Source of the DNA: a virus | Length of the DNA stretch: 64,000 nt | IMG/VR virus record: IMGVR_UViG_3300035703_000027 | Coordinates: 32,001 to 96,000 of that record | Direction: 5' to 3' (one strand) | Shown: piece after piece, positions 2,974 through 30,037 of the stretch | Layout: every line of letters starts with the position of its first letter | How positions within the stretch are numbered: position 1 is the first letter of the stretch | Translations under genes and position numbers: made by a program | The notes under the pieces: generated by a model | The model's input: the letters and a program-made list of their open reading frames with translations, nothing else | What the model was told of the DNA's origin: nothing | The model's database searches: none

Positions 2974-5900
2974 ATGGCCCTGACGTTGCGTGTCCCGACC
3001 CGCCTGCTGAACCGCGACGAGCTGCTCTCGCTGCTCAAGTCGCTCAGCCACACCCGCGCGCACACGCGCCAGACGAAGTACGGCGCGCAGTGGGTGCACG
3101 ACTACTTCCGGCAGAGCAAGGAGGAGCGGGCGGCCCTGGTGGGCAAGCTCGCCAGGAAGCTCGCCCGGGGCGACCACCACGAGGCCATCGGCACGCTCGC
3201 GCAGGCCACGCTGGTGGCGAAGCGCATCAGCCGGCAGGCGCCCATCGACGTGCACGTGACGCAGGACGCGGACGGGCGCTACGGGGTGACGGCGAAGCCG
3301 AAGGCGACGCTCGCCATGCCGGTGGTGGCGTCGGCCGGCAAGGCCTACGTGGAGCACCCGGTGGCCGGCCGCGTCGAGATGAACGCGGTGCTCGCGGGCC
3401 GGGGGCTGCACCAGGTCGGGCGCAAGACGCTGGAGAAGCACGCGCACGTCGTGGCGACGATCGACGGGACGGACCACGCCACGGCGCTTGCCAAGCTGCA
3501 CGGCCAGCAGCGCGAGGCGATCGCCGCCCGGCTGGCGGCCGGCAAGACGGTGGCGGCCCGGGTGGTGGCGCCCCACGATTCTGCGTTGCACGCGCAGCTC
3601 GCCGGGGTGAAGGCGGAGCGGGCCCGCAAGGCGGAGCAGCGTCAGGCGGTCCGGCTGGCGCGCCAGGCGGAGCGCGAGGCGCGCGCGCAGCGCAACCTGG
3701 CGCGCGAGCAGCAGCGCACGGTGCGCAGGGCCGAGCAGAACCGGGCGCGCGCCGAGAAGCGGCGCACGGGCACAGGCCGCAAGCCCGGCGCGCAGCCGGG
3801 GAACGACAACGCCCAGGGTGCGCACGAAGTGCCCGCCTGGGCGCAGGGCGAGCGTACGCTGCCCACCTGGTCCTTCGGGGACGGCGGGGCGCGGCACGTC
3901 GCGGGGCTCGTCAAGGACGCGCTGGGCGAGCACGCGTTCCCGCAGACCACTGCATCGGCACCGGGCGCCATGGCCTATGTTTCGTGGCCGATGGGCGGCT
4001 ACAGCTACAACCTGGAGGTACGCCCCACCGCCGGCAACGTCATGGTGGCCTCGCTGGTGGCGCAGGACGGCAAGGGCCAGCAGGCGACGGTGTGGGAGCG
4101 GGCGGTGGACGGCACGCGTGACGACACCGAGGCCGCCCTGAAGGAGGGCGCCGGGGTGGCGCTGGTGCATGCGGGCCTGAAGGCCGGCACCCTGCCGCCC
4201 CTGCCCGAGCGCTGGTGGGCGCCGAAGCCGCCCGAGGTGGCGCCCACGCCCGAGGTGAAGCCGGCGGCCGAGAAGAAGCCGCGCGTCCGCAGCGGCAAGA
4301 AGGCCGGCGCGCAGCCCGGGAACGACAACGCCAAGGGGCCGCACGACGTGGAGCCGGCCGCCGAGGTGGCGAACCTGCACGCGCACCGGCACGACCTCGC
4401 GGAGCTGGTCAAGGCTGCGCTGGGGCCGGCCGGGGCGCGGCTGCGGGTGCAGGACTTCGCCCCGCGCGGACAGGGGGGCGTGCGGTCGATCATGGGACTT
4501 TCGGGCGCGGACCGGAAGGCGGCTATCGACGGGGTGGTGGGCCCCGGCAGTGCCCTGGAGATCGTAAGCGGCGAGCAGGGCGGGCCGGTCGAGCTGAGCT
4601 GGAGCATGCGGGGGGTCGCAGGGGTCGAGGAGAGCTACAGCCTGAAGGCCACGCCGGGTGGCGAGGTCGAGCTGGGGATGTGGCGCACCGACTACGACAA
4701 CCCGGACGCCAGCGGCTACGTGCCGCTGTGGCGCCAGCCGGCGGGGGCCTCGCTCGCGGAGGTGCAGGCCGCCCTTGCGGCGGGTGCCGAGGCAGCCCTG
4801 GTGCACGCCGGCGAGCGGGGGGACCAGGAGCTGCCGCCGCTGGGCGACGACACGGGCCGCAAGCCCGGCGCGCAGCCCGGGAACGACAACGCCAAGGGCA
4901 CCCGCGGCAAGAAGAAGGAGCGCGCGCCTCTGGCGACCCGGGACATCGCCGGCATGTCGCTGGAGGAGGTCAAGGCGCTCGTCGAGGACACCGCGTCCAT
5001 GCTGGATGGCAACACCGTCTACGACGGCGTGGTGATGGTCCAGGACGGCGCCGGGTTCAACGCGACGGACCACCACGCGGCGCTGCGCTGGCTGGGGCAG
5101 CACTACAAGACGGACCTCGACTACGTGCTGATGGCGCAGTCGCTCATCAAGTACAAGGGGCAGTACCTCGACGATCGCGCGGAGGTGTTCAAGGCGCTGG
5201 TGCGGGCGGCGGCCCCCGAGGACGGTGGTTCCGGGCCGCGCTTCAAGTGGAACATCAAGGCGGCGGGCTGGGTGCTCGGCAACGGGGACGTGCAGGGTGA
5301 GCGCCCGCCCATGTGCGTCTACGCCAAGGGCGAGGGCCAGTACGGGGTGCAGTTCAAGTACAACGCCGACTTCGTGGACGGCATCAAGCGGCTGGTGCCG
5401 CCAGGTCAGCGCACGTGGGACTCCGCCCGCAAGGAGTGGACCGTCAGCGCCCTGGGGGCGAACAAGCTGCTTGGGGAGTTTGGGCACCGGGTCGGGATCG
5501 ACTTCGAGGGGCACCAGGCCCTCGCGGCGGCGATGGAGTCCGAGGCGGGTGAAGCCGCCAAGAAGGAAGCCGCCGAGGCCGAGAAGCGCGCGGCCGAGCT
5601 GGCGGAGGCGCGGGTGCTGATGGGCGACGAGGTGCCGCAGGACGGAGAGTACGTGCTGCGGGGGCTCAAGGTCATCAAGGCGGCGCCTTACGTCACGCTG
5701 GAGGCGGTGCCGGGCTACGCGACCAACTACCAGGTGGCAGTGAAGTTCAACCAGTTCGACCCCGAGTTCAAGGATCGGCTCAAGGGGGCGGTGCGGGCGC
5801 GCTGGGAGCCTGCTTACAAGTCGTGGCTGGTGGACGCCCGCGAGGTGCGGGAGGTGCTCGCGCTGTTCCCGGGGGCCGGCATGGACGCCGCGGTGTACGA

Positions 5901-8460
5901 GGCCCACGGAGCCCTGCTTTCGGAGTCCGACGACGACCTCCGGCGGGCGCTGGGCATGTTCCCGGTCGTGAGCAAGGAGAACACCGACTTCCAGGAGCCG
6001 GCGGGCTGGTCCACGCACACGATGCACGACTACCAGCGCAAGGGTGCCAACTGGCTGCTGGAGACGAAGAAGGGGATCCTGGGGTTCGGGGTGGGGCTCG
6101 GCAAGTGCCTGGGGCACGGGACGCCGGTCATGATGGCCGACGGGAGCATCAAGCCGGTGCAGGACATCGTGAATGGCGATCGCGTGATGGGGCCGGACTC
6201 GGCGCCGCGGACCGTCATGGGGGTCAACCGGGGCCGCGGGCCGCTCTACCGCATCGAGCCCGTGAAGGGCGACGCCTGGGTCTGCAACGACGTGCACGTG
6301 CTGACGCTGCGCCAGAGCGTGGGCGGGGCGGTGTTCGACATTCCGCTGGACCAGTACCTCGCGCACAAGGACACGCGGGCGCTACGCGACGCCAAGCTGT
6401 TCCGGGTGCCGGTGGAGTTCCCGGCCCGGGCGACGGCGCTCGACCCCTACATCCTCGGGGTGTGGCTCGGGGATGGAAACTCGCACCGGCCGAACATCCA
6501 CACGGTGGACGAGCCGGTGATCGAGTACCTGGTGCGCGAGGCGCCGAAGTACGGCGTGGAGGCGAAGGTAAGCCCGCAGCGGACGTGCACGGACGTGTAC
6601 ATGACGACGGCACGGGGCAGTCGGCAGCGCAACGTGGTGCTGGAGGAGGTCCGGCGCTGCTGGGTGGGCGAGGAGAAGCGCATCCCGGCGGACTATCTGC
6701 GCAACGGGCGCGAGGCACGGCTGTTGCTGCTCGCCGGGCTTATCGACACGGACGGCCACCTGACGGGCGGGTGTTACGAGGTCATCACCAAGTTCCCCGG
6801 GTTGCGGGACGACGTGCTCTACCTGGCGCGCAGCCTCGGCTTCGCGGCGTATGCCTCACGGAAGGTGGCGACCATCAAGGCGACCGGCTTCGAGGGGGTG
6901 TACTGGCGCGTCGTCATCAGCGGCGAGCTGGATCAGGTGCCGTGCCGGGTGGCGCGCAAGCAGGCCCCGCCGCGGCGCAGCAAGAAGCTCGTGACCAACA
7001 CGGGGTTCACGGCGGTGCCGCTCGGGGAGGGCGACTACTACGGCTTCACGCTGGACGGTGATGGCCGGTTTTTGCTCGGGGACTTCACGGTCACGCACAA
7101 CACCAACATCAGCATCGCGGCGGCCTGCAAGGCGCAGGAAGAGCACCCGGGCCGGCCTGCTATCTGCGTGGTGCCCGGCAAGCGCCTGTATGGCTGGAAG
7201 GCGGACATCGAGGCGGCGATGCCGGGCAAAAAGGTGTTCGTGTTCGACCAGGGCACCTCAGAGCGCGAGCAGATCAAGAAGGCGGGCGACCTGAGCCAGT
7301 ACGACTTCATCGTCGTGACCTACCGGATGCAGACGATCGAGAAGGACCACCTGGTGGGCCTGAAGCCCAGCGTGGTCATCTACGACGAGGCGCACAAGCT
7401 CAAGAACAAGAAGGCCCAGCAGTCGCAGGCAGCGGCGGAGCTGTCGGCGGCGGCGCCCTATGTGTGGGACCTGACGGCCACGCCGATGCCCAACCGGCCG
7501 GACGAGCTGATGGCCCTCATTCAGCGCAACCACGGCAAGAAGGCCATCCCGTCCAAGGACCTGTGGAACCGCTACTACAAGGTCGAAAAGAGCCGGTTCG
7601 GCTCGAAGGTGGTGGGCATCAAGGATCCCGAGGGCCTTAAGCAGGCGATCGCGCCGTTCGTGTTCATGAAGCGGGGCGACGACGCGGACGTGAACCTCAA
7701 TCTGCCGCCGCTGCGCAAGGGGCGCACGGTGCTGGAGCAGACGCAGTTCGAGCCGGATCAGCGCAGGGCGTACAACAGCGCTGCCGCGAACGTCCTGGCC
7801 TACATCAAGAGCATCGGGGGCAACCCGACGGCGGCGCAGCGGGCGGAGGCGCTGGTGCGCATGGGCAAGCTGGAGCAGATTGCCATCACGCCGGAGCTGG
7901 TGGATCCGACCTACAGCAAGCGGACGCCGAAGATACAGGAGATGCTCGACGAGATCGAGAACCGGGAGGGCGAGTTCCCGGGCAAGGGCCACGTGGTGTT
8001 CTGCCGGTTCGCGCAGGCCCTCCAGATTGCGAAGCGCGAGGCCCTCGCGGACGGGATGTTCAGGCCGGATGAGATCGCCATCATCGACGGGGCCACGTCC
8101 AAGCCGGACGTGCAGCGCATCCAGGACGCCCTGAACGCGGGCCGGCTGAAGCTGGTGCTGTGCTCGGATGCGGCGATGGAGGGCCTGAACTTCCAGCGGG
8201 GCTCGAATCACATGGTGCACCTCGACACCCCGTGGAGCCCGTACATGCAAGAGCAGCGCGACGGCCGGGTGTACCGGCAGGGCCAGCAGGAGCCGGTGCG
8301 CATCCAGACCATCGCGCAGGGCCCGATCGACCAGCATAAGGACACCCTGTCGATGCGCAAGGAGCGCATGAACGCGCAACTGTTCGGCAAGCAAGACGAG
8401 GAGGCCGCGGCCGCCGCCGTGACGGTGGCCGACCTCATGACGATGGCCCGGGAGGTGTAG
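2974..8460 (+). CDS. giant SNF2/SWI2-family helicase with diverged cargo leader, internal repeats, two HARP-like domains and an intein
   Basis: RBS GGAGG before ATG 2974. Walker A GVGLGK|T is split by an intein. Motifs YDEAH, LTATPMPN, EGLNFQ...PWSP...QRDGRVYRQGQ. LLK/SL near the N-terminus. Confidence 0.9.
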   Translation: MALTLRVPTRLLNRDELLSLLKSLSHTRAHTRQTKYGAQWVHDYFRQSKEERAALVGKLARKLARGDHHEAIGTLAQATLVAKRISRQAPIDVHVTQDADGRYGVTAKPKATLAMPVVASAGKAYVEHPVAGRVEMNAVLAGRGLHQVGRKTLEKHAHVVATIDGTDHATALAKLHGQQREAIAARLAAGKTVAARVVAPHDSALHAQLAGVKAERARKAEQRQAVRLARQAEREARAQRNLAREQQRTVRRAEQNRARAEKRRTGTGRKPGAQPGNDNAQGAHEVPAWAQGERTLPTWSFGDGGARHVAGLVKDALGEHAFPQTTASAPGAMAYVSWPMGGYSYNLEVRPTAGNVMVASLVAQDGKGQQATVWERAVDGTRDDTEAALKEGAGVALVHAGLKAGTLPPLPERWWAPKPPEVAPTPEVKPAAEKKPRVRSGKKAGAQPGNDNAKGPHDVEPAAEVANLHAHRHDLAELVKAALGPAGARLRVQDFAPRGQGGVRSIMGLSGADRKAAIDGVVGPGSALEIVSGEQGGPVELSWSMRGVAGVEESYSLKATPGGEVELGMWRTDYDNPDASGYVPLWRQPAGASLAEVQAALAAGAEAALVHAGERGDQELPPLGDDTGRKPGAQPGNDNAKGTRGKKKERAPLATRDIAGMSLEEVKALVEDTASMLDGNTVYDGVVMVQDGAGFNATDHHAALRWLGQHYKTDLDYVLMAQSLIKYKGQYLDDRAEVFKALVRAAAPEDGGSGPRFKWNIKAAGWVLGNGDVQGERPPMCVYAKGEGQYGVQFKYNADFVDGIKRLVPPGQRTWDSARKEWTVSALGANKLLGEFGHRVGIDFEGHQALAAAMESEAGEAAKKEAAEAEKRAAELAEARVLMGDEVPQDGEYVLRGLKVIKAAPYVTLEAVPGYATNYQVAVKFNQFDPEFKDRLKGAVRARWEPAYKSWLVDAREVREVLALFPGAGMDAAVYEAHGALLSESDDDLRRALGMFPVVSKENTDFQEPAGWSTHTMHDYQRKGANWLLETKKGILGFGVGLGKCLGHGTPVMMADGSIKPVQDIVNGDRVMGPDSAPRTVMGVNRGRGPLYRIEPVKGDAWVCNDVHVLTLRQSVGGAVFDIPLDQYLAHKDTRALRDAKLFRVPVEFPARATALDPYILGVWLGDGNSHRPNIHTVDEPVIEYLVREAPKYGVEAKVSPQRTCTDVYMTTARGSRQRNVVLEEVRRCWVGEEKRIPADYLRNGREARLLLLAGLIDTDGHLTGGCYEVITKFPGLRDDVLYLARSLGFAAYASRKVATIKATGFEGVYWRVVISGELDQVPCRVARKQAPPRRSKKLVTNTGFTAVPLGEGDYYGFTLDGDGRFLLGDFTVTHNTNISIAAACKAQEEHPGRPAICVVPGKRLYGWKADIEAAMPGKKVFVFDQGTSEREQIKKAGDLSQYDFIVVTYRMQTIEKDHLVGLKPSVVIYDEAHKLKNKKAQQSQAAAELSAAAPYVWDLTATPMPNRPDELMALIQRNHGKKAIPSKDLWNRYYKVEKSRFGSKVVGIKDPEGLKQAIAPFVFMKRGDDADVNLNLPPLRKGRTVLEQTQFEPDQRRAYNSAAANVLAYIKSIGGNPTAAQRAEALVRMGKLEQIAITPELVDPTYSKRTPKIQEMLDEIENREGEFPGKGHVVFCRFAQALQIAKREALADGMFRPDEIAIIDGATSKPDVQRIQDALNAGRLKLVLCSDAAMEGLNFQRGSNHMVHLDTPWSPYMQEQRDGRVYRQGQQEPVRIQTIAQGPIDQHKDTLSMRKERMNAQLFGKQDEEAAAAAVTVADLMTMAREV
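3775..4899 (+). repeat. three copies of the peptide repeat G(R/K)K(P/A)GAQPGNDNA(Q/K)G separating duplicated domains
   Basis: Near-identical 45-nt units at 3775, 4294 and 4855. The two intervening domains both end in ...AALVHAG. Confidence 0.85.
6106..7101 (+). mobile_element. intein with LAGLIDADG homing endonuclease (332 aa)
   Basis: Starts CLGHGTPV, ends DFTVTHN followed by Thr. PYILGVWLGDG and LLAGLIDTDG blocks are present. Confidence 0.93.
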
Positions 8461-8713: not shown

Positions 8714-8753
8714 GGCAAACACCCGGCCCCCGTGGCGCGCGCTGCGCTACGCT
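8714..8753 (+). promoter_or_regulatory. class A promoter GGCAA-N29-TACGCT
   Basis: GGCAA 8714-8718, TACGCT 8748-8753. Confidence 0.7.
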
Positions 8754-8772: not shown

Positions 8773-11598
8773 ATGCGGTTGTTTGCTGCCATCTACCTGG
8801 ACCTGTTGAAGGCCCTGATTCAGGTCAAGGCCCACACCCGGAAGGACGGCACCCAGGTGCGGGCGCACACCCGCAACATCCAGTCCCGGGCCGAGCGCAA
8901 GGAGCTGGTGGCGGCCCTCGCGCGCAAGATGGCGGACGGCGCGCGCACGCGCCACGCCACCCTGGCGTCGGCCGTCGGGGCCGCCCGGTACGCGTCGAAG
9001 GTCAACGGCAAGGCCGTGCACGTGTACGAGCACCCGGAAGGCGGCTGGGTCGCGACCCATGACGAGACGCACACGGAGGGGCACCCCGAGAAGATCGTCG
9101 CCCTGAAGGGCCGGGCGCGGCTGCACCGGGCGGGCGAGGCCTCGCGCAGCCTGGCGCACCTCAAGGGGCCCATCCTGGAGCACGTCGAGAAGCCGGCGCC
9201 CGCACCCAAGGTGAAGCCGGCCCGGCCCAAGCGGGAGAAGCAGCCGGAGCCGGTGGCGACGCCCGAGCCGGCCGCGAACGACGCGGAGGGGCTGCGCGCG
9301 CAGGCGGAGGCGCTGGGGATCCGGCTGTCGGCGGTGGAGAAGCGGGCGCTGGCGAACGGCAACCGGGTCGTGATGGGCTGGCTGCGCAAGCAGATCGAGA
9401 AGCGGCAGGGCAAGCCCGCGGCGCCCAAGCCGGCGCCCGTGGCGCCCGAGGTGGAGCAGGTGGCGCCCGAGCCTGACGCGCCCAAGCCGGAAGAGAAGCC
9501 CGCCGAACGGAAGCCCCGGGCGGAGAAGCCCAAGGCCCCCGCGCCGGAGAAGGCGGCCGACGCGGAACCCAAGGGGCCGCGCGGTGAACGCGAGTACGAG
9601 GACGTGGGCGAGAAGATCGGGGGGGCGCGCAAGGACCTCGCGGCAGCGTTCGCCCGGGGCGAAAAGAGCTTCGAGAACATCGACTGGTCCGAGATGCAGG
9701 AACTCCCCGAGACGGCGGCCAAGGTCATCATCAAGGCCAACCTGATTGGGCACCTGACACCAGAGCACCTCAAGAGCTTGGGGATGGACGCCCGCGCCGC
9801 GTACATGCTGGATCACATCCTCGGGACCATCGTGCGGGCTCCCAAAGACAGCAACTTGGAGCGTTATCGCTATGCGCGGGCGCTGGACCGCATCGCCAGG
9901 GCGGTGCGTAACGTCAAAACGCTGGACGACCTGCACGGCATGCTGCGAGATATGCACGACGAAGCCGCTGGCGTTTACGGCGACGCCGAGGATCTTGCCC
10001 CCCTGCAACTGCTACAGGCCAAAAAGGCCGTGGTCAGCAAGCGAATCCAGGACCTATATGCCGCTGGCATCCACCCGTCTGGAGACAACGCAGAACTCAA
10101 CAACCTGTTGGCGGAACGCAACAACCTGTGGGACGAGATGAGCACGCAGCTCGACAAGGTGCGCGCCAAGTCACGCAGCACGCCACACCCCTGGGGTGCA
10201 TGCTACGGCGCACTCGGTGCGAACTTCGCCAAAGGCCTGGACAAGCTCGGCTACCAGGTCAGCGATTTTGGGATCCCGTCAGACACCAAGACGATCATGA
10301 ACCTGCCCCGCGGCACCTACAAGACCTCGTGGAGTGACGCCCTGAGCAAGGCGCGCGGCATGAAGGCCGACGACTGGAGCTGGTCCGAAAAGGCGTCAGA
10401 GGGCTCTACGGCCCCGAAGGAAAAGGCAGCCAAGGGAGCAAAGCCGACGGGCGAGATTCGCCTGCCGGACTGGAAGCGCAAGACCCCCGAGCAGTACGAG
10501 CGCACGGGCGGCAAGACGGTGGACTTCGGCGCCCTCTCGAAAGACGGCAAGATCAAGCCGGAGGGCATTATGCAGGCGTTCAAGCTGCGAGGTGTCGAGT
10601 ACGGCAACTGGGTCACGCAGGCCGAGGCGGCCCACCACACGCAGCGCGCCGGCGAGGCCCTGCAAGACCTCGCGACAATTCTGGGGGTCACGCCAGAGCA
10701 TGTCAGCTATGGCGGACGGCTGGCCCTGGCGTTTGGGGCGCGGGGTTCGGGGAAAGCTTTGGCGCACTACGAGTCCGAACGTAAGGTCATCAACCTGACC
10801 AAGCACGCTGGTGGCGGCACGCTGGCCCACGAGTGGGCCCACTTCCTCGACAACATCGTGGCAAACGTCTCGCAGCCGACAACGGGTGAGGTGCAGGACG
10901 CGACGCGTTACATGTCTCACTGGGACGAGAAGGGGGTGCCCGGCCAGGCGCACCCACGCGTCGCACAGGCGATCGCGGGCGTCCTCAAGGCCATGCACGA
11001 GGGCGGCGTTCCCCAGCTTGAATCAGTCAAGCCGCCAAAAAACCCGGCCCCGCTCTACTACAGATACGCCGACCTGGACCAGTTTGTCGCCGAGCACGGC
11101 CCGCAAGAAGGCTTCAACAAGTACATCGAGGGCAAGCGTCAGACCGCGCGGTGGCAGATGCGCACGAGCACCGTGCGCGACTATGCCAAGTACGTCGCGG
11201 CGAAAACGGGGACCATCATCCACTATGACGTGGGGACGCAGAACAGCGATTTTTACACGACGGCCATCACGCAGGACATGGGCTCACCAAAATACTGGGC
11301 AACGCCCCACGAAATGTTTGCGCGGGCGTTCGAGGCCTACGTGCAGGACAAGGGCGCAGAGAAGGGCATCACCAACAACTACCTGGTGGACGGAACCAGG
11401 GTGCCCTCGGACCTCACATACCGGCACCCCACGGCAGGAGAGCGCCCCTTCGCGGTGTACCCGGTGGGCGAGGAGCGCAAGCGCATCAACGCCGCGATGG
11501 ACGACCTGATGGCCGCCCTGCGGGAGACGGACACCCTGAAGAAGGCCCTGGCGCTCGCGGGCCCGTCGAGCGGGATGCTGTTCCGGCGCTGGTGGTAG
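8773..11598 (+). CDS. cargo-leader protein with large-polyvalent-protein (LPD5/LPD1-like) domains and HExxH motif
   Basis: Conserved leader; EDVGEKIGGARKD; FKLRGVEYGNWV; LAFGARG...AHYE...VINLTK...LAHEWAHFLD; YWATPHEMFARAFEAY; C-terminal LKK/AL tail. Confidence 0.8.
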   Translation: MRLFAAIYLDLLKALIQVKAHTRKDGTQVRAHTRNIQSRAERKELVAALARKMADGARTRHATLASAVGAARYASKVNGKAVHVYEHPEGGWVATHDETHTEGHPEKIVALKGRARLHRAGEASRSLAHLKGPILEHVEKPAPAPKVKPARPKREKQPEPVATPEPAANDAEGLRAQAEALGIRLSAVEKRALANGNRVVMGWLRKQIEKRQGKPAAPKPAPVAPEVEQVAPEPDAPKPEEKPAERKPRAEKPKAPAPEKAADAEPKGPRGEREYEDVGEKIGGARKDLAAAFARGEKSFENIDWSEMQELPETAAKVIIKANLIGHLTPEHLKSLGMDARAAYMLDHILGTIVRAPKDSNLERYRYARALDRIARAVRNVKTLDDLHGMLRDMHDEAAGVYGDAEDLAPLQLLQAKKAVVSKRIQDLYAAGIHPSGDNAELNNLLAERNNLWDEMSTQLDKVRAKSRSTPHPWGACYGALGANFAKGLDKLGYQVSDFGIPSDTKTIMNLPRGTYKTSWSDALSKARGMKADDWSWSEKASEGSTAPKEKAAKGAKPTGEIRLPDWKRKTPEQYERTGGKTVDFGALSKDGKIKPEGIMQAFKLRGVEYGNWVTQAEAAHHTQRAGEALQDLATILGVTPEHVSYGGRLALAFGARGSGKALAHYESERKVINLTKHAGGGTLAHEWAHFLDNIVANVSQPTTGEVQDATRYMSHWDEKGVPGQAHPRVAQAIAGVLKAMHEGGVPQLESVKPPKNPAPLYYRYADLDQFVAEHGPQEGFNKYIEGKRQTARWQMRTSTVRDYAKYVAAKTGTIIHYDVGTQNSDFYTTAITQDMGSPKYWATPHEMFARAFEAYVQDKGAEKGITNNYLVDGTRVPSDLTYRHPTAGERPFAVYPVGEERKRINAAMDDLMAALRETDTLKKALALAGPSSGMLFRRWW

Positions 11599-11599
11599 C

Positions 11600-11639
11600 G
11601 GCAAGGGGGAGCCTCACGGGGCGCCCCCGCCCTTACGAT
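11600..11639 (+). promoter_or_regulatory. class A promoter GGCAA-N29-TACGAT
   Basis: GGCAA 11600-11604, TACGAT 11634-11639. Confidence 0.7.
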
Positions 11640-11657: not shown

Positions 11658-13529
11658 ATGCGTTCGATGTCGCACAGGCCTGGCCTGGCGTTGCTCAAGG
11701 CCCTCATCCAGGTGCGCCAGCACACCCGGAAGGACGGCACGACCGTGCGGGCCCACACGCGCAACGTGCAGACCCGGGGCGAGCGGCGCGCGCTGGTGGC
11801 GACGATGGCGGAGCGCATGGCCGGCGGTGCGCCCGTGCGGCACGCGAGCCTCGGGTCCGCCCTCGGGGCGGCCCGGCACGCGTCCAAGGTCAACGGCAGG
11901 GCCGCGCACGTGTACGAGCACCCGGAGGGGGGCTGGGTATCGACGCACGACGGCAGCCACACGGAGGGCCACGACGAGAAGATCGTGGCGGTGAAGGGCC
12001 GGGCGCGCCTGCACCGTGCGGGCGAGGCATCGCGCAGCCTGGCGCACCTCAAGGGGCCCATCGCGGAGCACGTCGAGAAGCCCGCGCCCGCGCCCGCGCC
12101 CAAGGTGAAGCCGGCCCGCCCCAAGGCCCCGCCGCCCGCGGCCGAGCCGGTGCCCGCCGCCCCGGCCGCGGACGCGGCGGCGGCGCGGCAGCGCGAGGCG
12201 GTCCTGCCCGCGGAGCGGCTGACCTACCCGGGGGCGCCGGAGGCGGTGGTGTACCACGACGCCAACAACCACTCGGTCGTGATCAGCTTCCGCGGCGGGG
12301 TGTCCACGGCGGCGACCCGCGAGGCCCTCAAAGCCCGGGGGTTCCGCTACAACGAGGTCGGCAACGACTGGTACGCGCCCCACACGCCCGAGGCCGTGCG
12401 CCTGGCGAACTACACGCGCCGGCGCTACAACGGCCTGACGCCCGAAGAGCACGCCCAGCGGGAGGCCTGGGACACCCTGACGCCCGCGAAGCGCCACGCG
12501 ATCGCCTACGAGCCGCTGACGCAGCTCGGGGGCGCCGGCCCGCAGCACGACAACCGCCCGCACGGGTTGCTGGCGCGCGCCCGGGGCCTCGACCTTCCCG
12601 TGTCGCCGGAGATGGCGCAGGCGGTGCAGGCGCACGACCACCTGGCCATGGTGCAACTGCACGGCGCGGTGCATGCCGCCGAGGGGCGGCGGGGCCGGGA
12701 GGAGGAGCTGCACGACGGCGTGGACCCCCACCCGATGGCGCTGCTGAAAGCGGCGTCCGAGGCCGGGCTGACGTTTGCCCCCGACGAGGTGCAAGCCCTC
12801 GTGGCGCGGCAGCGGCCCGCCCTGCTGGCGGCGCAGACGCGGGTGGCCGAGGCGCAGGTACAGGCCAAGCGCCGCCGGGCGCTGGACAACGCGGGCCTGA
12901 CGGGCGGCGCGCAGCCGCGCGCGTCCTTCACCGCCCCCATCCAGGTGCGGCGGCCCGGCGGGGGCGTCGCGGCGGTGTCCCACACCTTCGAGACCGGCCA
13001 GCGGGTGCTCTGGTCGCGCAAGGGGCAAGCGGTCCCCGTGACGCTCGCCGGCATCATGCAGAAGCCCGGCCAGGCGCCTACCTTCCAGGTGTTCAGCGAT
13101 GACGGGCAGCCGTTCAACGTGCCGGTGGCCGCCATCGCCGGGGCCCCGACCTACGACGCCCCGCCGGCGCAGGGCCCGGCCGACGGGCCCAGGTTCGTGG
13201 ACGCCTACACCGCCAACATCGAGGTCTGGGAGAAGCGGGGCGACGGGGCGGCAGGGGTGCGCAGGCCGCACACCTTCCGGCCCGGCCAGCGCGTCCGCTT
13301 TGCGGACGGCCGCGGCTTCTCCACCGGCGTGCTGCTGTTCATCTACCAGGAGGCCGGCAAGCGCCAGCCGACGTTCCGCGTGGTGAACGATCACACCGGC
13401 GAGGTGCATGCCGTGGTGGCCGACAACATGGTGCGGCGCGTGACCTACAGCCGGCCGCCGGCGCAGGCGGACGAGCTGCGCAAGGCCCTGGAGGGCCCGT
13501 CGAGCCGGCTGCTGGTCGCGCGCTTGTAG
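11658..13529 (+). CDS. cargo-leader protein, paralog A (two HTFxxGQRV beta-barrel-like repeats)
   Basis: RBS GGAGG; LLK/AL plus conserved leader; C-terminal LRK/ALEGPSSRLLVARL. Confidence 0.8.
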   Translation: MRSMSHRPGLALLKALIQVRQHTRKDGTTVRAHTRNVQTRGERRALVATMAERMAGGAPVRHASLGSALGAARHASKVNGRAAHVYEHPEGGWVSTHDGSHTEGHDEKIVAVKGRARLHRAGEASRSLAHLKGPIAEHVEKPAPAPAPKVKPARPKAPPPAAEPVPAAPAADAAAARQREAVLPAERLTYPGAPEAVVYHDANNHSVVISFRGGVSTAATREALKARGFRYNEVGNDWYAPHTPEAVRLANYTRRRYNGLTPEEHAQREAWDTLTPAKRHAIAYEPLTQLGGAGPQHDNRPHGLLARARGLDLPVSPEMAQAVQAHDHLAMVQLHGAVHAAEGRRGREEELHDGVDPHPMALLKAASEAGLTFAPDEVQALVARQRPALLAAQTRVAEAQVQAKRRRALDNAGLTGGAQPRASFTAPIQVRRPGGGVAAVSHTFETGQRVLWSRKGQAVPVTLAGIMQKPGQAPTFQVFSDDGQPFNVPVAAIAGAPTYDAPPAQGPADGPRFVDAYTANIEVWEKRGDGAAGVRRPHTFRPGQRVRFADGRGFSTGVLLFIYQEAGKRQPTFRVVNDHTGEVHAVVADNMVRRVTYSRPPAQADELRKALEGPSSRLLVARL

Positions 13530-13532: not shown

Positions 13533-13572
13533 GGCAACTCGGGGCCCGGGCAGCCGCTTCCGGCCCTACGAT
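13533..13572 (+). promoter_or_regulatory. class A promoter GGCAA-N29-TACGAT
   Basis: GGCAA 13533-13537, TACGAT 13567-13572. Confidence 0.7.
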
Positions 13573-13590: not shown

Positions 13591-15297
13591 ATGCGCTCGT
13601 ACTTCGTCGGCCCGGGGCTGCAAGCCCTGGAGAAGGCCCTCATCCAGGTGCGCCAGCACACCCGGAAGGATGGTACGGTCGTGCGGGCCCACACCCGCAA
13701 CGTCCAGTCCCGCTCCGAGCGGCACGACATGGTGGCGGCCCTGTCGCGCCGGATGGCGGGCGGGGAGCACGTGCGGCACGCCACGCTGGCCTCCGCCCTG
13801 GGGGGCGCCCGGCACGCCTCGAAGGCGAACGGCAAGGCGGCCCACGTGTACGAGCACGCCGACGGCGGCTGGGTGGTGACGCACGACGCCAGCCACACCG
13901 AGGGCCACAAAGAGCGCATCGTGGCGGTGAAGGGCAAGGCGCGCCTGCACCGGGCGAAGGGACCCTCGCGCAGCCTGGCGCACCTCAAGGGCCCCATCGC
14001 GGAGCACACGCCCAAGCCGTTCGTGCCCAAGGTGAAGCCGGCCCGGCCGAAGAAGCAGCCACCGGCCCCCGTGGTGGCGCCGCTGGACGCGCATGGGGCC
14101 AAGCAGCGCGACCGGGTGCTGCCGCCGCAGCGCATCGCGCTGGAGGAGCGCCCCACGGTGCTTGCCGCGCGCGACATGACGGCGCGCAAGGTCGTCATCA
14201 AGTTCAAGGGGGCGCTCCCGAGCCTCAAGACGGCGGAGGTGTTGCGGGCGCGCGGGTTCGAGCCGCAGCCGGGCGACCAGGTGTGGCTCGCCCCGCTTTC
14301 GCGGCGGGCGGTCCAGCTCGCGAACTACACGCGCCGGCGCTACAACGGGCTGTCGCCCGAGGAGCAGGCCGCCTGGGAGCGCTGGCCCGAGCTGCACCCG
14401 CACGAGCGGGAGCTGCTGGCTGCCGCCCCCCTGCCGCGCATCCGGGAGCGGCCCAAAGACTACCTGGTGCCTAACGACCTCACGGAGCGGGCGCGGGCCG
14501 CGGGCGCGGCCTACGGCATCGACCCGCAGTTCTGGCGCAAGGCCCAGGAGTCGCCCGCGTGGCAGCGGCACCTGGAGCGCCGGGTGGCGATCGCCGAGGC
14601 GGCGATCGACCCCGGGCAGCAGGAGCCCGACGACACCCCGCACGGCCTGCTGCTGCGGGCGCACCGCCTCGCCTTGCCGGTGGCGCAAGACCTCGCCGAT
14701 GCGGCCGTGAAGCTGGACCATGCCGCCCTCGCGAACCTCGCCGGCCAGGTCGAAGCGGCCGAACGGTCCGCGGGCGTGGCCCCCGCCTGGGAGCCTGCCG
14801 ACGATCGCAACGTGCGGCACGAGCCCGTTTCCCCGGGCGAGCTGATTCAGCGCGCGCACCGGGCGGGCCTCACGCTGCCGCGCGAGAGCCTGCAAGTGCT
14901 GCTGGCGGAGAAGCCCGACGAGACGGCGGAGGCCCTGCGGCGCGTCAAGGCGGCGGAGGCCGCGCAGTCCGGGACGGGCAGCTTCACGGCCACGCTGCGC
15001 ACGCCCACGGGGCCGGTGTCCCACACCTTCCGGCCCGGCCAGCGCGTGCTCTACCGGACGCCGTGGGGGCGTGTCGAGGAGGCCACCTTGCAGTCGATCG
15101 ACCTGGAGAAGCGCCGCGTCGGGCTGGTGACGTGGCGCGGTGCGAGCGTCGAGGCCCCGATCCTCGACATCACGCAGCCGATGTACCGGGTCATGCCCAA
15201 GGACCCCCCGACGGGCCTGCCCATGGCCAAGGCGCTGGGCCTGCCGCCCCGGGCCCGGCCCGTCAGCTCGCGGCTGTTTGCACGCTTCCTCGGCTGA
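13591..15297 (+). CDS. cargo-leader protein, paralog B
   Basis: RBS AGGAGG; LEK/AL plus leader; shares LANYTRRRYNGL, PHGLL and HTFRPGQRV with paralog A; C-terminal MAK/AL tail. Confidence 0.8.
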   Translation: MRSYFVGPGLQALEKALIQVRQHTRKDGTVVRAHTRNVQSRSERHDMVAALSRRMAGGEHVRHATLASALGGARHASKANGKAAHVYEHADGGWVVTHDASHTEGHKERIVAVKGKARLHRAKGPSRSLAHLKGPIAEHTPKPFVPKVKPARPKKQPPAPVVAPLDAHGAKQRDRVLPPQRIALEERPTVLAARDMTARKVVIKFKGALPSLKTAEVLRARGFEPQPGDQVWLAPLSRRAVQLANYTRRRYNGLSPEEQAAWERWPELHPHERELLAAAPLPRIRERPKDYLVPNDLTERARAAGAAYGIDPQFWRKAQESPAWQRHLERRVAIAEAAIDPGQQEPDDTPHGLLLRAHRLALPVAQDLADAAVKLDHAALANLAGQVEAAERSAGVAPAWEPADDRNVRHEPVSPGELIQRAHRAGLTLPRESLQVLLAEKPDETAEALRRVKAAEAAQSGTGSFTATLRTPTGPVSHTFRPGQRVLYRTPWGRVEEATLQSIDLEKRRVGLVTWRGASVEAPILDITQPMYRVMPKDPPTGLPMAKALGLPPRARPVSSRLFARFLG

Positions 15298-16429: not shown

Positions 16430-16469
16430 GGCAATCCGCCGCGAAGCGCGCACGGGGCCGTGTTACGGT
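16430..16469 (+). promoter_or_regulatory. class A promoter GGCAA-N29-TACGGT
   Basis: GGCAA 16430-16434, TACGGT 16464-16469, ahead of ATG 16490. Confidence 0.7.
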
Positions 16470-16489: not shown

Positions 16490-18334
16490 ATGCCCCACCT
16501 GCTGCGATCCGTTGCCGATCACCTCGCCGGGTCCACCCCGCTCCAACGGGTCGCCGGCGCGCTGGCCGGCCCCCTCGAAAAGGGCCTCGTCCACACCTAC
16601 ACGCGCCACATGCACGGCGTCGCCCAGGTGGTGCCCGAGCACATGCGCGCGGACCCCGCCGCCATCATCGGGATGCTTGCCAAGCGGCACCACCACCAGC
16701 TCAGCTTCGACCTGTTCGGCGGTGGCGGCGGCGGGGCGCCCCCGGCCGTCCAGCCCCACGGCGCCGGCAACGGTGGCACGGTGCAGCGCGACAGCATGTA
16801 CCGGGTGCAGGACCAGGAGCCGGCCGTCGGCAGCATCGCGCAGGCCACCTTCAAGCCCGAGCCCGCGCCCCCGGCCACGCAGACGCACCGTCCGCGCGTG
16901 CCCCAGGGGCTGCACCTGCCGGCGGAGAAGGCCGAGGCCCGCAAGGTGCTGGAGGGGGCGCACCGGGACCTGGTGACGGCCCGCCAGCTCGAAGAGGACG
17001 CCAAGCTGGAGCCCGGCCGCCGCGAGGCGCTGCTCGCGCGCGCCACCACGCTGCGCGCGCGGCTCGCCGACGCGGCCGGCCCGGACTACGAGCGCGCCGT
17101 CGAGGGCAAGCTCGTGGCGAACTACGCCCCGGAGATTGGCGGCGTGGTGGCCGACTGGGCCCACAAGGTGGGCGTGCCCGTCGAGCGGGACGCGCACGGC
17201 CGGCCGTCGGGGAACTTCGGCCTGCTGCATGCCGAGGCGCTCGACGCCGCCTACCAGGCGGTGCACCGCTACCGCACCCACAACCGCACCGGCCTGCTGA
17301 AGCTCGTGAAGGGCCAGGTGGAGCAGCGCCTGTTCCGGCACTGGAAGCGGGCCGTCGGCAAGGGCGCGTTCAACATGGGCCAGAACGAGGCCGAGGACGC
17401 GAGCAAGGTCGCACGCTACACCAGCGCGCACGCGTCGGCCTACGGCGAGCAGCCCACGGACGAGCAGGTGGCGGAGGCCCTCGGGATGACGCCCAAGCGG
17501 GTCGCCGACATCAAGCGGCAGGCGATCGCCGCGCTCGGGGACAGCCTGAACCAGACCAGCGAGGACGGCAGCGAGCTGGGAGAGCGGGTGGGCAGCAGCC
17601 GCCAGGACCCGGCCCGGCGGGCGGAGGCCGACGAACTGTCCGACGCCGTGCATACCGCGCTTGCGGAGCTGGATCCGCTGAAGCGCGCCACGGTCCGGGT
17701 GGCGCACGGCATGGGGCTCGACGCGGACACGGCCGCGCACCTCGCCGCGCACACGCAGCTCGACGACCTCGCGGCGGCCTTGCAGGACCACGCCCACCTC
17801 GCCGAGCCCGACGCCCGCGCGACGGCCGCGGTGGGGGCGGTCCAGTGGCGCGCCCCGGGGGACGCGGCGCTGCGGGTGCGGGCGGCGCTGCACCTGCTGG
17901 ACCACGGCGCGGACCCGGTGCAGGCCTTGCAGGCGCCCGAGCAGCGGGAGGATGGGGACAAGCACGACATTTCCGTCTCCGAGGTCTACCGGCGCGTCGG
18001 GCTGAAGCCGGCCAACAGCGGCAGCGTGCTGCGGTCTGCTGAGCAGGCGCTGGCCCGGCACCCGGCGCTGGTCGGCTTCCGGGACGCGCTGCACAAAAGC
18101 TTGTTCGCGCCCATTGGCACGCCGTGGGGGTCGCTGCTCGCGGCGATCGCCCCTGCGGCCCTCCTTGCGAGCCTGCCGGCGCCCTTGGCAGCCCTCGCGC
18201 CCTCGCTCCTCGAAGATGATCGGCACGGCTGGGCGCTGGTGCGGGAGGATCGCGCCGCGGAGGCTGCCATTCTGGCGGCGGCGGCCCAGGGGGGTGGGGA
18301 TGAAACGGTTCACGGTGACGGCGCGGGGCGTTAG
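16490..18334 (+). CDS. sigma-70-family RNA polymerase sigma factor with cargo-like leader and region-4 insertion
   Basis: Region 2-like LVANYAPEI...EALDAAYQAVHRY; region 3 GEQPTDEQVAEALGM...SLN; region 4 LAELDPLKRATVRVAHG...ISVSEVYRRVGL. LEK/GL at the N-end and LHK/SL at the C-end. Confidence 0.75.
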   Translation: MPHLLRSVADHLAGSTPLQRVAGALAGPLEKGLVHTYTRHMHGVAQVVPEHMRADPAAIIGMLAKRHHHQLSFDLFGGGGGGAPPAVQPHGAGNGGTVQRDSMYRVQDQEPAVGSIAQATFKPEPAPPATQTHRPRVPQGLHLPAEKAEARKVLEGAHRDLVTARQLEEDAKLEPGRREALLARATTLRARLADAAGPDYERAVEGKLVANYAPEIGGVVADWAHKVGVPVERDAHGRPSGNFGLLHAEALDAAYQAVHRYRTHNRTGLLKLVKGQVEQRLFRHWKRAVGKGAFNMGQNEAEDASKVARYTSAHASAYGEQPTDEQVAEALGMTPKRVADIKRQAIAALGDSLNQTSEDGSELGERVGSSRQDPARRAEADELSDAVHTALAELDPLKRATVRVAHGMGLDADTAAHLAAHTQLDDLAAALQDHAHLAEPDARATAAVGAVQWRAPGDAALRVRAALHLLDHGADPVQALQAPEQREDGDKHDISVSEVYRRVGLKPANSGSVLRSAEQALARHPALVGFRDALHKSLFAPIGTPWGSLLAAIAPAALLASLPAPLAALAPSLLEDDRHGWALVREDRAAEAAILAAAAQGGGDETVHGDGAGR

Positions 18335-18944: not shown

Positions 18945-19874
18945 TCAGAAGGGCAGCTCGGCGTCGTCGGCCGCGTCCGCGTCGGGCGCCTCGGCCGCCG
19001 GGGCGTCCTGCGCCGCCTTGGCGGCCTTGGCCCGCAGGGCGAGCGCCAGCGCCCGGAGCTGGGCGGGCGTCAGCTTGGTGAAGCCGGCGTACCCGGGGAT
19101 GGTGTCCCGGCAGAACTGCGAGAGCGCCGCCTTGTCGAGCCCGGCGGCCTCGGCCGCGGCCTTGACGGCCGCCAGCGCGTCGCCGTCGGGCCCCTCGGGC
19201 TGCGCGGGCGCTGCGGGCACGCTGCGCACGGGCGGCATGGGCGCAACGGGCGTGTTGCGCATCGGCGGCTCGGCCGCCGCCACCGGGTTCTGGGCCTGGT
19301 CCATCTCCTCGGAGACGTACACGCCGCTCAGCTCGGACGGGAAGGCCCGCCGCAGCGCGAGGGCCTCGGCCACCTTGCCGATCATGACCTCGGGCATGGC
19401 GGCCCAGAACTTCATCAGGCCCCCGTCGCGCCGGCGGGCGGCGTAGGCGTTGAAGCGCGCCACCCCGTAGAGGGGCTGGGTGAACCCGTGCTTGAGCACG
19501 CCCACGCGGGCGGCGACCGGCGGCGTGTCGTAGGGCCACGCCTCGTGCCAGTTGCCGTCCTTGTCGAGCCAGTGCGGGCCCACCTGCCCGGCGTACCGCC
19601 CCGACCGCTCCGCGATGAGGCGGAAGCCGTCGATCGACACCTGGACCGCCACCACGTCGCGGCCCGCGTCATCGCGGCGCTTGACGTAGAACACCTGCCG
19701 GGCGAACGGGTCGAGCCGCAGGCGATTGGTCATGGCGATCGCCATGTCCACCTGGTCGGCCGGGGCGCCCGCCAGCATGGTGCGCTTGAGCAGCGCGATC
19801 TCTTCCTCGGAAAGGAAGGGGCGCTCGATGCTGACCACCTCGCCGGTGGTGTTGTTCACGTGCTCTGCCGTCAT
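18945..19874 (-). CDS. bet: phage single-strand annealing protein, Bet/RecT family
   Basis: LDPFARQVFYVKR...VQVSIDGFRLIAERSGRY; W..MPEVMIGKVAEALALRRAFP; acidic ELPF tail (SSB-like interaction tail). Confidence 0.88.
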   Translation of the reverse strand: MTAEHVNNTTGEVVSIERPFLSEEEIALLKRTMLAGAPADQVDMAIAMTNRLRLDPFARQVFYVKRRDDAGRDVVAVQVSIDGFRLIAERSGRYAGQVGPHWLDKDGNWHEAWPYDTPPVAARVGVLKHGFTQPLYGVARFNAYAARRRDGGLMKFWAAMPEVMIGKVAEALALRRAFPSELSGVYVSEEMDQAQNPVAAAEPPMRNTPVAPMPPVRSVPAAPAQPEGPDGDALAAVKAAAEAAGLDKAALSQFCRDTIPGYAGFTKLTPAQLRALALALRAKAAKAAQDAPAAEAPDADAADDAELPF

Positions 19875-27206: not shown

Positions 27207-27285
27207 CGGGTGCTCCTCTCGGGTGGTCCGGCCGTCGTGTTGTCTCATGTGATAAACTTTACCCCGCCGGGCAAGGGCAGGGGTC

Positions 27286-27312: not shown

Positions 27313-27336
27313 GGGCCGCGGCCCGGGGGAGGCGTC

Positions 27337-27663
27337 GTGCGCGGGGTAGACCTGTATCCCTGGCTGCGGTTCTACGTGGCTGTGCTGCGGTGCTTCAACG
27401 GGCTGTCGCTGGGCGGCCTGGTGGTGTTCGTGGTCGCCGCCACCTACGGCACCCTGCAACTGCCCCCGCTGTTCGCGGCGCTGGGCACGGCGTGGGCCCT
27501 GCTGGTCGTCGTCGCCCCGTGGCTCATGTCCATCGCGGTGCTGGGGGTGTTCCACGAGGCCGCCGCCGCCCTTGCGGACCTCGCCGAGGCCGCCGCCGAG
27601 GCGGCCCTTCACGCCGGGCGCATCGAGCGGGGGCTTGCAGCGCCCGCGTCGCACGCGTCGTGA
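27337..27663 (+). CDS. two-TM membrane protein
   Basis: GGGGGAGG RBS; two long hydrophobic stretches. Confidence 0.6.
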   Translation: MRGVDLYPWLRFYVAVLRCFNGLSLGGLVVFVVAATYGTLQLPPLFAALGTAWALLVVVAPWLMSIAVLGVFHEAAAALADLAEAAAEAALHAGRIERGLAAPASHAS

Positions 27664-27693
27664 TCGCACGCTGCGCGCCTGCTGCGTGCAGGC

Positions 27694-27732
27694 GGCAATT
27701 CAGGCGCCGGCGGGCGTGCGGGGCTCTAGAAT
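27694..27732 (+). promoter_or_regulatory. class A promoter GGCAA-N28-TAGAAT
   Basis: GGCAA 27694-27698, TAGAAT 27727-27732. Confidence 0.65.
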
Positions 27733-27751
27733 GGGAGCGGAGGAACGCCCC

Positions 27752-30037
27752 ATGCTGCTGGTCCCGGTTCGCTCATCCCTCTCGCTCTCGGCCTACCTGA
27801 CGCTGCTCAAGGCCCTGATCCAGGTCAAGGCCCACACCCGCAAGGATGGGACGCGGGTCCAGGCGCACACGCGCAACATCCAGTCGAGGGCCGAACGCCG
27901 CGAGCTGGTCGAGGCCCTCGCCAAGAAGATGGGGAGCGGCGAGCACACGCGCCACGCCACCCTGGCGTCCGCGGTCGGCGCGGCGCGCTTCGCCTCGCGC
28001 GCCAACGGCAAGGCCGTGCACGTCTACGAGCACGCCGACGGCGGCTGGGTGGCGACGCACGACGAGACGCACACCGAGGGCCACGACGAGAAGATCGTGG
28101 CCCACAAGGGCAAGGCGCGGCTGCACCGGGCGGGCGAGGCCTCGCGCAGCCTGGCGCACCTCAAGGGTCCGATTGCCGAGCACGTCGAGAAGCCGTTTGT
28201 GCCCAAGGTCAAGCCGGCCCGCCCCAAGGCGGAAAAGAAGCCGGCCCCGACGCCCGTGGCCCCCGCCCCGGGCAAGGTGGACTTCGGCGCGGAGAAAACG
28301 GTCAAGGGGGAGACGCACGTCCCCGTGACGGTGGACGGGCAGATGACGCACGCCTTGACGAAGGACCGCCAGACGGGAGTCTGGGCGTTGCAGCGCGTGG
28401 ACGAGCGCGACCACCAGGGGCCGGTCAAGATGACGCTGGTGCGGGAGGGGATGACCCGAAAGGAAGCCCAGCAGTACGCCGCCGCCCTCGCCGGGAACGA
28501 TGCGGGCGAGCTGGCCCGCGTGCACCAGTACGATCGCGGCGTGCCGGTGTCGGAGATGCCGCAACTCAAGCAGATGCGGGATTTCTCCGCACTGCTTACT
28601 GGGCAGGATGGAGAGGGGCGCACCTGGTACACGCAGGGGTACTACCTCTCAACGGCCAATCAGGATGACTACCTCCTGCCAGGCGCCCAAGAGCAACCGA
28701 TGGTGCGCAGTGCCGGTGTGGTGGATGAGTTCATCCCAGCCGCCACCACCCCGGTCCACCCGGTCGCCTTCAAGACCTCGCCGACCAACGGCCGAACAGG
28801 CGCCGTCGTGTTCGACAACGGCGCCGTTGCAAGCGCCGAATACGTCCAGCGGCTGATGAAGCTGCACCCCGGGGCCTCCTGGCACTACGGCACCACCGCG
28901 ACCTCGGTTGCCGGCGTCCCGATCAACGGCGTGGGCGACGGCAGCTTCCCGTTCGTGCTGAAGGACCGCCACGGCGCGAACGTCGCCATGCTGATGCCGC
29001 TGAAAGCAGAGGCCGGCAAGGACGGCCTCAAGGAGCTGGCCGACCAGGTGGCCGCCGGCTACCGCCCGGCCAGCATAAAGCCCGAAAAGCCCGGATATGA
29101 GGGGCCGGAGGGTAAAGATATGACCGACGACAACGCAGCGGAGAGGAAGGCAGGCAGTGACCTCCGGGCCGCCGTGGCGGACAAGAACGGCGCGGTCGCG
29201 AAGGCACGCATCCGCCTGCACGACGACGTGGCGGACATCTACGCCGTCAAGCACCCCGACGGGCACATCACCGCCACCGTGCACTGGGTCGAAGGACAAA
29301 AGGCGCGCACTCAGCCCCACAACAGCTTCAACCTGGAGGGGTTCACGTCCAGCTTCAGCGGACCCAGGAAGTGGGACACCATCACGGCGTTCAAGCGCGA
29401 CCTGGATCGCAAGTTCGGGGGGAAGGGCTACGTTCATCCGAACTGGCGCGACGCCCACTACGAAAGCGAGCTTGAGGTACGCGACTTCAGCGAGGAGCAC
29501 GCCAGGGCCGTCGCGATCAAGGAAAAGCGGCGCAGGGCCGAAGCAGACGCCTACCGAGCAGGTGAGTCGGGTCGCAATCAAAGCCAGCAGTCCCGTCCCG
29601 TCAACTTGGCCGAGGAGTTAGCCAGGCAGGCAGCCGTGGCGACCGGCGATCGCGCGGACCTCAAGCACCCGGCCACGCGCAAGGCCGTGGTGGACGACCT
29701 TAAGAAGCTCGACGTGCACACCCTGGCGCCGCGGGCGCGGTGGAACAACATCGACCCCGACGTGACGGGCAAGCAGCTCACCGCGCGCGTCCAGCTCAAG
29801 CGGGCCGTGCCGCACCAGATGACGTACATCAACCCGAACACGGGCGAGAACCAGGGCCGTCTGGTCGAGCATGACGGCTACGATCTTCAGTGGCACCCCG
29901 ATCGGGGCGTCTCGCTCAAGAACGACGATGGCAAGAAGGTCTGGTCCGACCCGGCGGCCACGAAGGACCCCGTGGCTGCCGTGAAGGCCGCGCTTCAGGC
30001 CGCCAACGCGCTGCCGGATATGACCTACAAGTCCTGA
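27752..30037 (+). CDS. cargo-leader protein, isolated copy with an unrelated C-terminal region
   Basis: GGAGG RBS; LLK/AL plus conserved leader; ends ...DMTYKS. Confidence 0.8.
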   Translation: MLLVPVRSSLSLSAYLTLLKALIQVKAHTRKDGTRVQAHTRNIQSRAERRELVEALAKKMGSGEHTRHATLASAVGAARFASRANGKAVHVYEHADGGWVATHDETHTEGHDEKIVAHKGKARLHRAGEASRSLAHLKGPIAEHVEKPFVPKVKPARPKAEKKPAPTPVAPAPGKVDFGAEKTVKGETHVPVTVDGQMTHALTKDRQTGVWALQRVDERDHQGPVKMTLVREGMTRKEAQQYAAALAGNDAGELARVHQYDRGVPVSEMPQLKQMRDFSALLTGQDGEGRTWYTQGYYLSTANQDDYLLPGAQEQPMVRSAGVVDEFIPAATTPVHPVAFKTSPTNGRTGAVVFDNGAVASAEYVQRLMKLHPGASWHYGTTATSVAGVPINGVGDGSFPFVLKDRHGANVAMLMPLKAEAGKDGLKELADQVAAGYRPASIKPEKPGYEGPEGKDMTDDNAAERKAGSDLRAAVADKNGAVAKARIRLHDDVADIYAVKHPDGHITATVHWVEGQKARTQPHNSFNLEGFTSSFSGPRKWDTITAFKRDLDRKFGGKGYVHPNWRDAHYESELEVRDFSEEHARAVAIKEKRRRAEADAYRAGESGRNQSQQSRPVNLAEELARQAAVATGDRADLKHPATRKAVVDDLKKLDVHTLAPRARWNNIDPDVTGKQLTARVQLKRAVPHQMTYINPNTGENQGRLVEHDGYDLQWHPDRGVSLKNDDGKKVWSDPAATKDPVAAVKAALQAANALPDMTYKS

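Follow-up and report, generated by a model that had tools for sequence, protein, structure and literature searches.

The window analysed here is a 64,000-nucleotide stretch of IMG/VR virus record IMGVR_UViG_3300035703_000027, namely bases 32001-96000 of a single contig of 121,189 bp with 71% G+C (GC). The genome is that of a contractile-tailed phage (myophage) with a capsid module of the SPO1/Twort type. A preliminary description of the window, made from its letters, had noticed four genes (starting at 8773, 11658, 13591 and 27752) that carry a common N-terminal module in front of different payloads, and had taken them for a capsid-cargo system whose tag is loaded into the head and cut there. 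Reading of the whole genome identified twelve plus-strand genes of this one build (cargo genes g1-g12) with 13 module copies, six of the twelve lying upstream of the window; the family as first seen was real, but it was incomplete.

The cargo genes shared a fixed order, in which a leader is followed by a hydrophobic-x-Lys/(Ala/Ser/Gly) junction, then by a basic, His-rich module of about 150 residues, and then by payloads that are unrelated. All twelve begin with a GGAGG ribosome-binding site and an ATG. Leaders were 13-31 residues long, except in g6, where a 110-residue domain stands first, and the module was always preceded by an invariant Leu-x-Lys, then Ala, Ser or Gly. Two modules were found in g5, and the module of g6 is internal. 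The proteins are basic, with isoelectric points (pI) of 8.8-10.5, apart from g5 at 7.3; the internal proteins of phage T4 are basic as well. The block begins one gene past the portal gene, g1 being the second gene after it. Within the window, the block comprises the following features:

1..1271, plus strand: C-terminal part of g6, the start of which lies 1,638 bases before the window; module at residues 116-283, HExxH zincin motif from about 912
1638..2498, plus strand: SNase-family nuclease with a lipoprotein-type signal and no leader, within the cargo block
2974..8460, plus strand: g7, SNF2 helicase cargo; leader 2974-3039, Lys/Ser site, diverged module from 3040
8773..11598, plus strand: g8; leader 8773-8811, module 8812-9231, HExxH and LPD1 zincin payload
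11545-11595, plus strand: C-terminal Lys/Ala-Leu site of g8 with a 17-residue tail
11658..13529, plus strand: g9; leader 11658-11699, module 11700-12125, payload without a family match
13485-13526, plus strand: C-terminal site of g9 with a 14-residue tail
13591..15297, plus strand: g10; leader 13591-13635, module 13636-14052, payload paralogous to that of g9
15232-15294, plus strand: C-terminal site of g10 with a 21-residue tail
16490..18334, plus strand: g11, sigma-like cargo; 31-residue leader 16490-16582, Lys/Gly site
27752..30037, plus strand: g12; leader 27752-27811, module 27812-28228

In the four genes first noticed, the module stood where the preliminary description had placed it (ends at 9231, 12125, 14052 and 28228), and the copies were 63-73% identical in protein and 75-82% identical in DNA. 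The diverged copies reported for the SNF2 gene (site 3031-3039) and the sigma-like gene (site 16574-16582) were found too, the module of g11 consisting of a hairpin only, with no alpha/beta core. Likewise present were the three C-terminal Lys/Ala-Leu tails of g8, g9 and g10 and a second Lys site in g11, 78 residues before its C-terminal end (tail 18098-18331). The claim that the proteins are bracketed by the motif, however, held for only four to five of the twelve, a C-terminal site being confined to g1, g8, g9, g10 and g11, and the Tyr-Lys-Ser at the end of g12, counted earlier as such a site, is not a cleavage site. The two-module gene g5 (genome 25472-30025, plus strand; 1517 residues) resembles two leader-module-payload units fused into a polyprotein-like chain, with the second module at residues 625-782 and two motif sites ahead of it.

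The resemblance of the module copies had led the preliminary description to propose that near-identical leaders let Bet-type recombination swap payloads, and the repeated module DNA could accordingly be viewed mainly as homology for RecT-driven cassette exchange. A RecT gene does lie on the minus strand at 18945-19874, payload domains have passed from one cargo gene to another, and internal cassettes distinguish sister phages. However, at 75-82% DNA identity the copies lack long identical tracts; the shuffled payload, that of g12, is shared in part with the g1 homologue of a sister phage at 33% identity, which makes the event old; and the way in which the protein is conserved suggests that selection acts on the peptide. 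RecT-driven swapping was thus not supported, because the copies are not near-identical in DNA and the visible payload shuffling is old, and we consider exchange very improbable as the main role of the repeats.

The Lys/(Ala/Ser/Gly) junction had also been equated with the motif of the capsid maturation protease, and this gained in silico support from the head proteins of the phage and its relatives. The structural genes concerned, together with the tail sheath gene, are:

42582-43436, plus strand: prohead protease sharing 37% identity with SPO1 gp3.2 (E 7e-23)
43433-44191, plus strand: acidic scaffold protein of 252 residues, between the protease and capsid genes, with 6 motif sites
44229-45689, plus strand: major capsid protein of the SPO1/Twort type, with a predicted maturation site at Lys47/Ser48 (Ser codon 44370-44372)
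49059-50819: tail sheath gene

The major capsid protein matched PHROG 752 at 9e-66, shared about 30% identity with its SPO1-group counterparts and, among solved structures, matched the SPO1 Gp6.1 chain (E 1.5e-51). The portal gene, upstream of the window, was recognised by Phage_portal at 91.6 bits. The window holds no tRNA genes.

The literature offered nothing usable on an experimentally determined Herelleviridae cleavage site, and the annotation of phage A511 and the chain lengths in the PDB were used instead. The site in the capsid protein reads Met-Arg-Lys47/Ser48-Leu. In a HMMER alignment, Ser48 paired with residue 25 of the 463-residue phage 812-type capsid chain 5lii, and the deposited chain 9row_B of the same 812-type protein has 439 residues, its residue 1 being residue 25 of the 463-residue precursor. 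At the aligned point the phage 812 gene encodes Val-Val-Lys/Ser-Phe. In the GenBank record of Listeria phage A511, the mat_peptide starts directly after Ala-Leu-Lys23, which aligned with Lys47/Ser48. Among about 45 capsid homologues, Leu-Asn-Lys/Ala-Leu is conserved. The maturation site of the present capsid protein has apparently shifted (44340-44372, plus strand), the Lys of the conserved site being replaced by Gln and a new Met-Arg-Lys/Ser-Leu lying six residues downstream; in two relatives both sites are present.

The motif was then counted as [LIMF]-x-K-[ASG]-[LMI]. It occurred 21 times in the cargo block versus 2.7 expected and 6 times in the scaffold versus 0.12 expected (p = 3e-9), and about 7 times versus about 3.5 expected in the remaining proteins, with the scaffold and capsid protein set aside. 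Because of the excess in the cargo block and in the scaffold, the pattern cannot be ascribed to chance. Furthermore, the scaffolds of three related metagenomic lineages contained 7-9 motif sites each, and x-Lys/Ser is likewise abundant in the SPO1 and phage 812 scaffolds.

Two relatives, a 54% GC ENA scaffold (L006) and a 64% GC JGI contig (L008), each have a syntenic block of module-bearing genes. Across the three lineages (71, 64 and 54% GC), Lys/(Ala/Ser/Gly) was kept in all 28 of 28 module copies. Five of six internal module copies had a second site 11-25 residues upstream, mostly Leu-Glu-Lys/Gly; therefore, a leader-like spacer would be excised even inside fusions. At the other end of the proteins, the C-terminal Lys/Ala-(Leu/Met) of the LPD1 protein was kept in 3/3 lineages although the tails that follow differ, and homologues of g9 and g10 keep the C-terminal site together with a hydrophobic aromatic tail. 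Four independent lines, from the capsid, the scaffold, the cargo block and conservation, thus support in silico that the Lys junction of the cargos is a prohead-protease motif, and we infer that the cargos are cleaved inside the prohead. A further protease substrate may be encoded by the 631-residue gene between the portal gene and g1 (genome 15980-17875, plus strand), which has no family match and no module and in which a 10-residue leader ends in Leu-Arg-Lys/Ala-Val.

Several cargos carry peptidase motifs of their own. HExxH motifs were found in g5, g6 and g8, g5 and g6 end in HExxH domains, one LPD1 domain is present, and self-processing has been proposed for polyvalent proteins by Iyer et al. 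(PMC5512222). The proteins could, on these grounds, be packaged but cut by the cargo-borne zincins rather than by the prohead protease. This would leave unaccounted for that the junction motif equals the one in the capsid and scaffold, sites that belong to a protease family with a post-Lys cut annotated in A511, and that the same motif is enriched in the scaffolds of relatives. We regard processing by the zincins as distinctly improbable.

The payloads were examined by family scans. LPD1 was found in g8 at 82 bits (cut-off 27), and g8 also matches giant uncharacterised PHROG families. The SNF2-rel_dom match of g7 reached 74.8 bits (cut-off 24.9). In g4, DarA_C scored 36.3 bits (cut-off 27; E 8.3e-9), and g4 also matches a PHROG named "released from the phage upon host infection"; DarA_C is weak in g1 and present in a homologue from L008. 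A ParB-like PHROG match was obtained for g3 (8.7e-6), and g11 is sigma-like, with Sigma70_r3 at 24 bits and PHROG 351. Most cargos have one or two recognisable domains and are in large part unannotated, and g5 and g6 look like fusions. LPD, zincin, SNF2, ParB and DarA domains have been proposed by Iyer et al. to be delivered with invading DNA (PMC5512222), and in silico support was obtained that the payload families, comprising LPD1, DarA_C, SNF2, ParB-like domains and HExxH zincins, are tied to virion- or conjugation-delivered proteins (PMC5512222). The same repertoire bears on whether the module-bearing proteins could build up an inner body or core inside the head, a structural role to which the payloads would be secondary. 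The many basic paralogues, which would be processed like the paralogue families in the heads of giant phages (PMC10052503), would suit such a body; the payloads, however, are enzymes and defence-countering domains (SNF2, ParB-like, zincins and DarA_C) and not structural repeats, and this explanation appeared to us the least probable of those considered.

The module itself has a pI of 10.1-11.5 and 10-16 His per 140 residues. An AlphaFold2 model from an 11-copy alignment had a mean predicted local distance difference test score of 74, with core residues 40-125 near 90. The model runs from a helix, formed by the leader and the junction, through a poorly defined tandem hairpin of the "HTRKDGT" type and an alpha/beta core to a disordered Pro/Lys-rich linker. 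The preliminary description had suggested a profile search and a structure prediction as checks, allowing that the module might be a known domain; both were run. In a profile search of 1.84 billion representatives, only 25 proteins fell below 1e-10. The module had no family match in Pfam or PHROG scans, and its fold gave nothing at E <= 0.001 in Foldseek searches of the PDB and BFVD. Among 48,161 chains compared with VIA-align, the best Z was 4.7, for 61 residues of ribosomal protein bL17, which is within background, and the ESM Atlas yielded no usable match. No relatives were found by pattern scans of IMG/VR and GTDB species genomes, and tblastn against 50,697 GenBank phage records returned no match. 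Judged by these searches, the module is a new domain family with no known relatives.

The short hairpin alone, by comparison, is widespread, occurring in many small secreted bacterial proteins and at the end of the SNase lipoprotein at 1638-2498, the last 22 residues of which (2430-2495) are the "YTRKDG" hairpin motif that opens the module. The high pI of the module, together with the same hairpin closing a nuclease, suggests that the module may bind DNA. Three other assignments were rejected. An HxxEH string in the module was considered as an inverted zincin motif and dismissed because the diverged copies lack it and it is predicted to fall within a strand. The Pro/Lys linker was compared with T7 gp6.7, and the Pfam match (E 0.14) was not significant. 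The leader is not a secretion signal, because the payloads are cytoplasmic enzymes and an A-x-A site is absent.

A promoter-like motif, GGCAA-N29-TAnnnT, was found to link the cargo genes with structural genes. The genome contains 19 copies, 10 of them in the window versus 0.73 expected, and the window copies span 8714-63611. They include:

8714..8753, plus strand: GGCAA-N29-TAnnnT before g8
11600-11639, 13533-13572, 16430-16469 and 27694-27732: further copies

The motif precedes the portal gene, nine cargo genes, several tail genes and the sigma-like gene g11 itself; none was seen immediately before the protease-scaffold-capsid operon on the plus strand.

Taken together, we consider that the twelve proteins are probably head-packaged, protease-processed and injected effectors that share one standard loading handle. 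The cargos would be expressed together with the structural genes, and the amphipathic N-terminal leader and the basic module, in some proteins along with the short hydrophobic C-terminal tail, would bring them into the assembling prohead. There, the SPO1-type prohead protease would cut after Lys in hydrophobic-x-K/(A/S/G)-(L/M/I), removing the leader and the C-terminal tail and splitting the fused forms, and the mature cargo, its new N terminus formed by the module, would remain in the head. At infection, the cargos would leave the head with the DNA and act early, the ParB-like, DarA_C, zincin/LPD1 and SNF2 payloads presumably against host defences and the sigma-like factor perhaps in transcription. 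More tentatively, the module may be a capsid-loading and co-injection adaptor that, in contrast to all known capsid targeting peptides, remains part of the mature protein and keeps the dozen effectors at the portal or attached to the packaged genome for entry with the leading DNA; we hold this specific role to be possible but doubtful.

Several points weigh against packaging and processing of this kind. Packaging, cleavage and ejection, as well as the binding partner of the module (scaffold core, portal or DNA), we infer from the sequence. In the AlphaFold2 model, the invariant Leu-x-Lys lies in a helix running into the module, and hence it may have been kept for structure. The prohead protease had no match in the Pfam scan. 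Whereas T4 internal proteins lose their targeting peptide, the predicted cut would leave the module on the cargo, and the part that the module plays in loading is a guess. g5, g6 and g8, with their own zincin motifs, might process the cargos themselves. In addition, a packaged sigma factor fits poorly, as its promoter class also precedes the portal and tail genes.

Some of these points would suit a different explanation, in which the twelve are ordinary intracellular phage proteins, paralogues with anti-defence or DNA-metabolism roles that are synthesised once infection has begun and never enter the virion; the module would then be a functional domain, serving for instance to bind DNA or RNA polymerase or to direct the protein to its place in the cell, and Leu-x-Lys would be structural. 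The module is indeed conserved and basic, the modelled junction is within a helix, and packaging itself is predicted. Such proteins, however, would have no evident need of a C-terminal motif followed by divergent tails, of a second site before internal modules, or of a junction that matches the capsid and scaffold sites, and the adjacency to the portal gene and the promoter motif common to structural genes would be left unexplained as well. We therefore judge a purely intracellular role unlikely, and the comparison with known systems below is made on the reading of the twelve as packaged effectors.

By analogy, the cargo system would work like the capsid targeting sequence (CTS) of T4, the Dar proteins of P1 and the propeptide-bearing ejection proteins of phiKZ-like phages, with payloads drawn from the domains of polyvalent proteins. 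As in the CTS of T4 IPI-III and Alt, a short N-terminal leader ends in a prohead-protease motif and, in T4, is removed in the head (PMC9024508, PMC9026906); T4 internal proteins are basic, and infection delivers them together with the DNA (PMC9024508, PMC9026906); the cargos here are likewise basic and presumably injected. The protease families differ, the T4 enzyme cutting after Glu in L/I-x-E and the present one after Lys. Unlike in T4, a conserved module of about 150 residues stays on the predicted mature protein, and there are twelve large multidomain cargos, some with a C-terminal site. Pfam and PHROG scans of the cargos listed no family of T4 IPI-III or Alt, although a relation need not show in such a list.

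In P1, the Dar proteins are head proteins; DarB has a 30-residue N-terminal packaging signal, and DarA is processed (PMC9024508). The two systems are alike in that large antirestriction proteins are, or here would be, loaded into the head, and g4 holds DarA_C. The P1 proteins, in contrast, have no common module, and their loading is hierarchical through DarA/Hdf. DarA_C was the only shared domain in general family scans, which did not include a search aimed at DarB, Hdf, DdrA/B or Ulx. Polyvalent proteins have the same domain repertoire (LPD1, zincin peptidase, SNF2, ParB-like and DarA) beside packaging genes (PMC5512222), but they hold it in one giant polypeptide of 2 to 15 domains, whereas here it is spread over twelve genes with one handle. 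No MuF or ArdC-N handle was found in the cargos.

The ejection proteins of phiKZ-like phages (SPN3US and 201phi2-1) similarly comprise several head-internal proteins, some of them paralogous, and the prohead protease trims these proteins at one fixed motif (PMC10052503). Their motif is A-x-E, however, and their propeptides, mostly of 111-254 residues, are discarded, with no common module retained on varied payloads. MuF-fused polymorphic toxins and other polymorphic effectors also combine a constant trafficking part with variable payloads; here, the constant part is a new domain and not MuF, and Phage_Mu_F matched none of the twelve proteins, nor the product of the gene that follows the portal gene (Pfam, E up to 0.01-1). 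The proposed system would thus differ from the known ones in three respects, namely the large retained module, the polyvalent repertoire spread over twelve genes with one handle, and the cut after Lys.

If this reading is true, one phage lineage has standardised protein delivery: a single type of leader, protease site and adaptor domain serves to load at least twelve large effectors, some 11,000 residues of coding capacity, into its head. The idea of "polyvalent" invasion proteins would then become a set of separately testable units, and the leader and module would be a candidate portable, plug-and-play tag for packaging foreign or large proteins in a capsid type common to Herelleviridae-like phages. 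The possible entry of a sigma-like factor and an SNF2 helicase alongside the DNA would matter for the study of early takeover and of anti-defence. The predicted cleavage sites are exact and can be checked by virion mass spectrometry.

Some further features of individual cargo genes were observed. g7 contains a 332-residue intein (Hint and LAGLIDADG homing endonuclease; 6106-7101, plus strand) in its P-loop (G-L-G-K / T), and in the L006 homologue of g7 the P-loop motif is uninterrupted. The N-terminal region of g7 at 3720-4911 (plus strand) has three repeats of about 112 nucleotides that encode a Pro/Gly/Asn-rich "PGAQPGNDNA" linker, which recurs in cargo proteins of L006. A Nudix-bearing cargo gene (L008:86-4567) is seemingly split by an intein, and an opposite-strand open reading frame in the intein region weakly matches MTES_1575; its homologue in L006 is one protein of 1779 residues with the Nudix domain ahead of the internal module.

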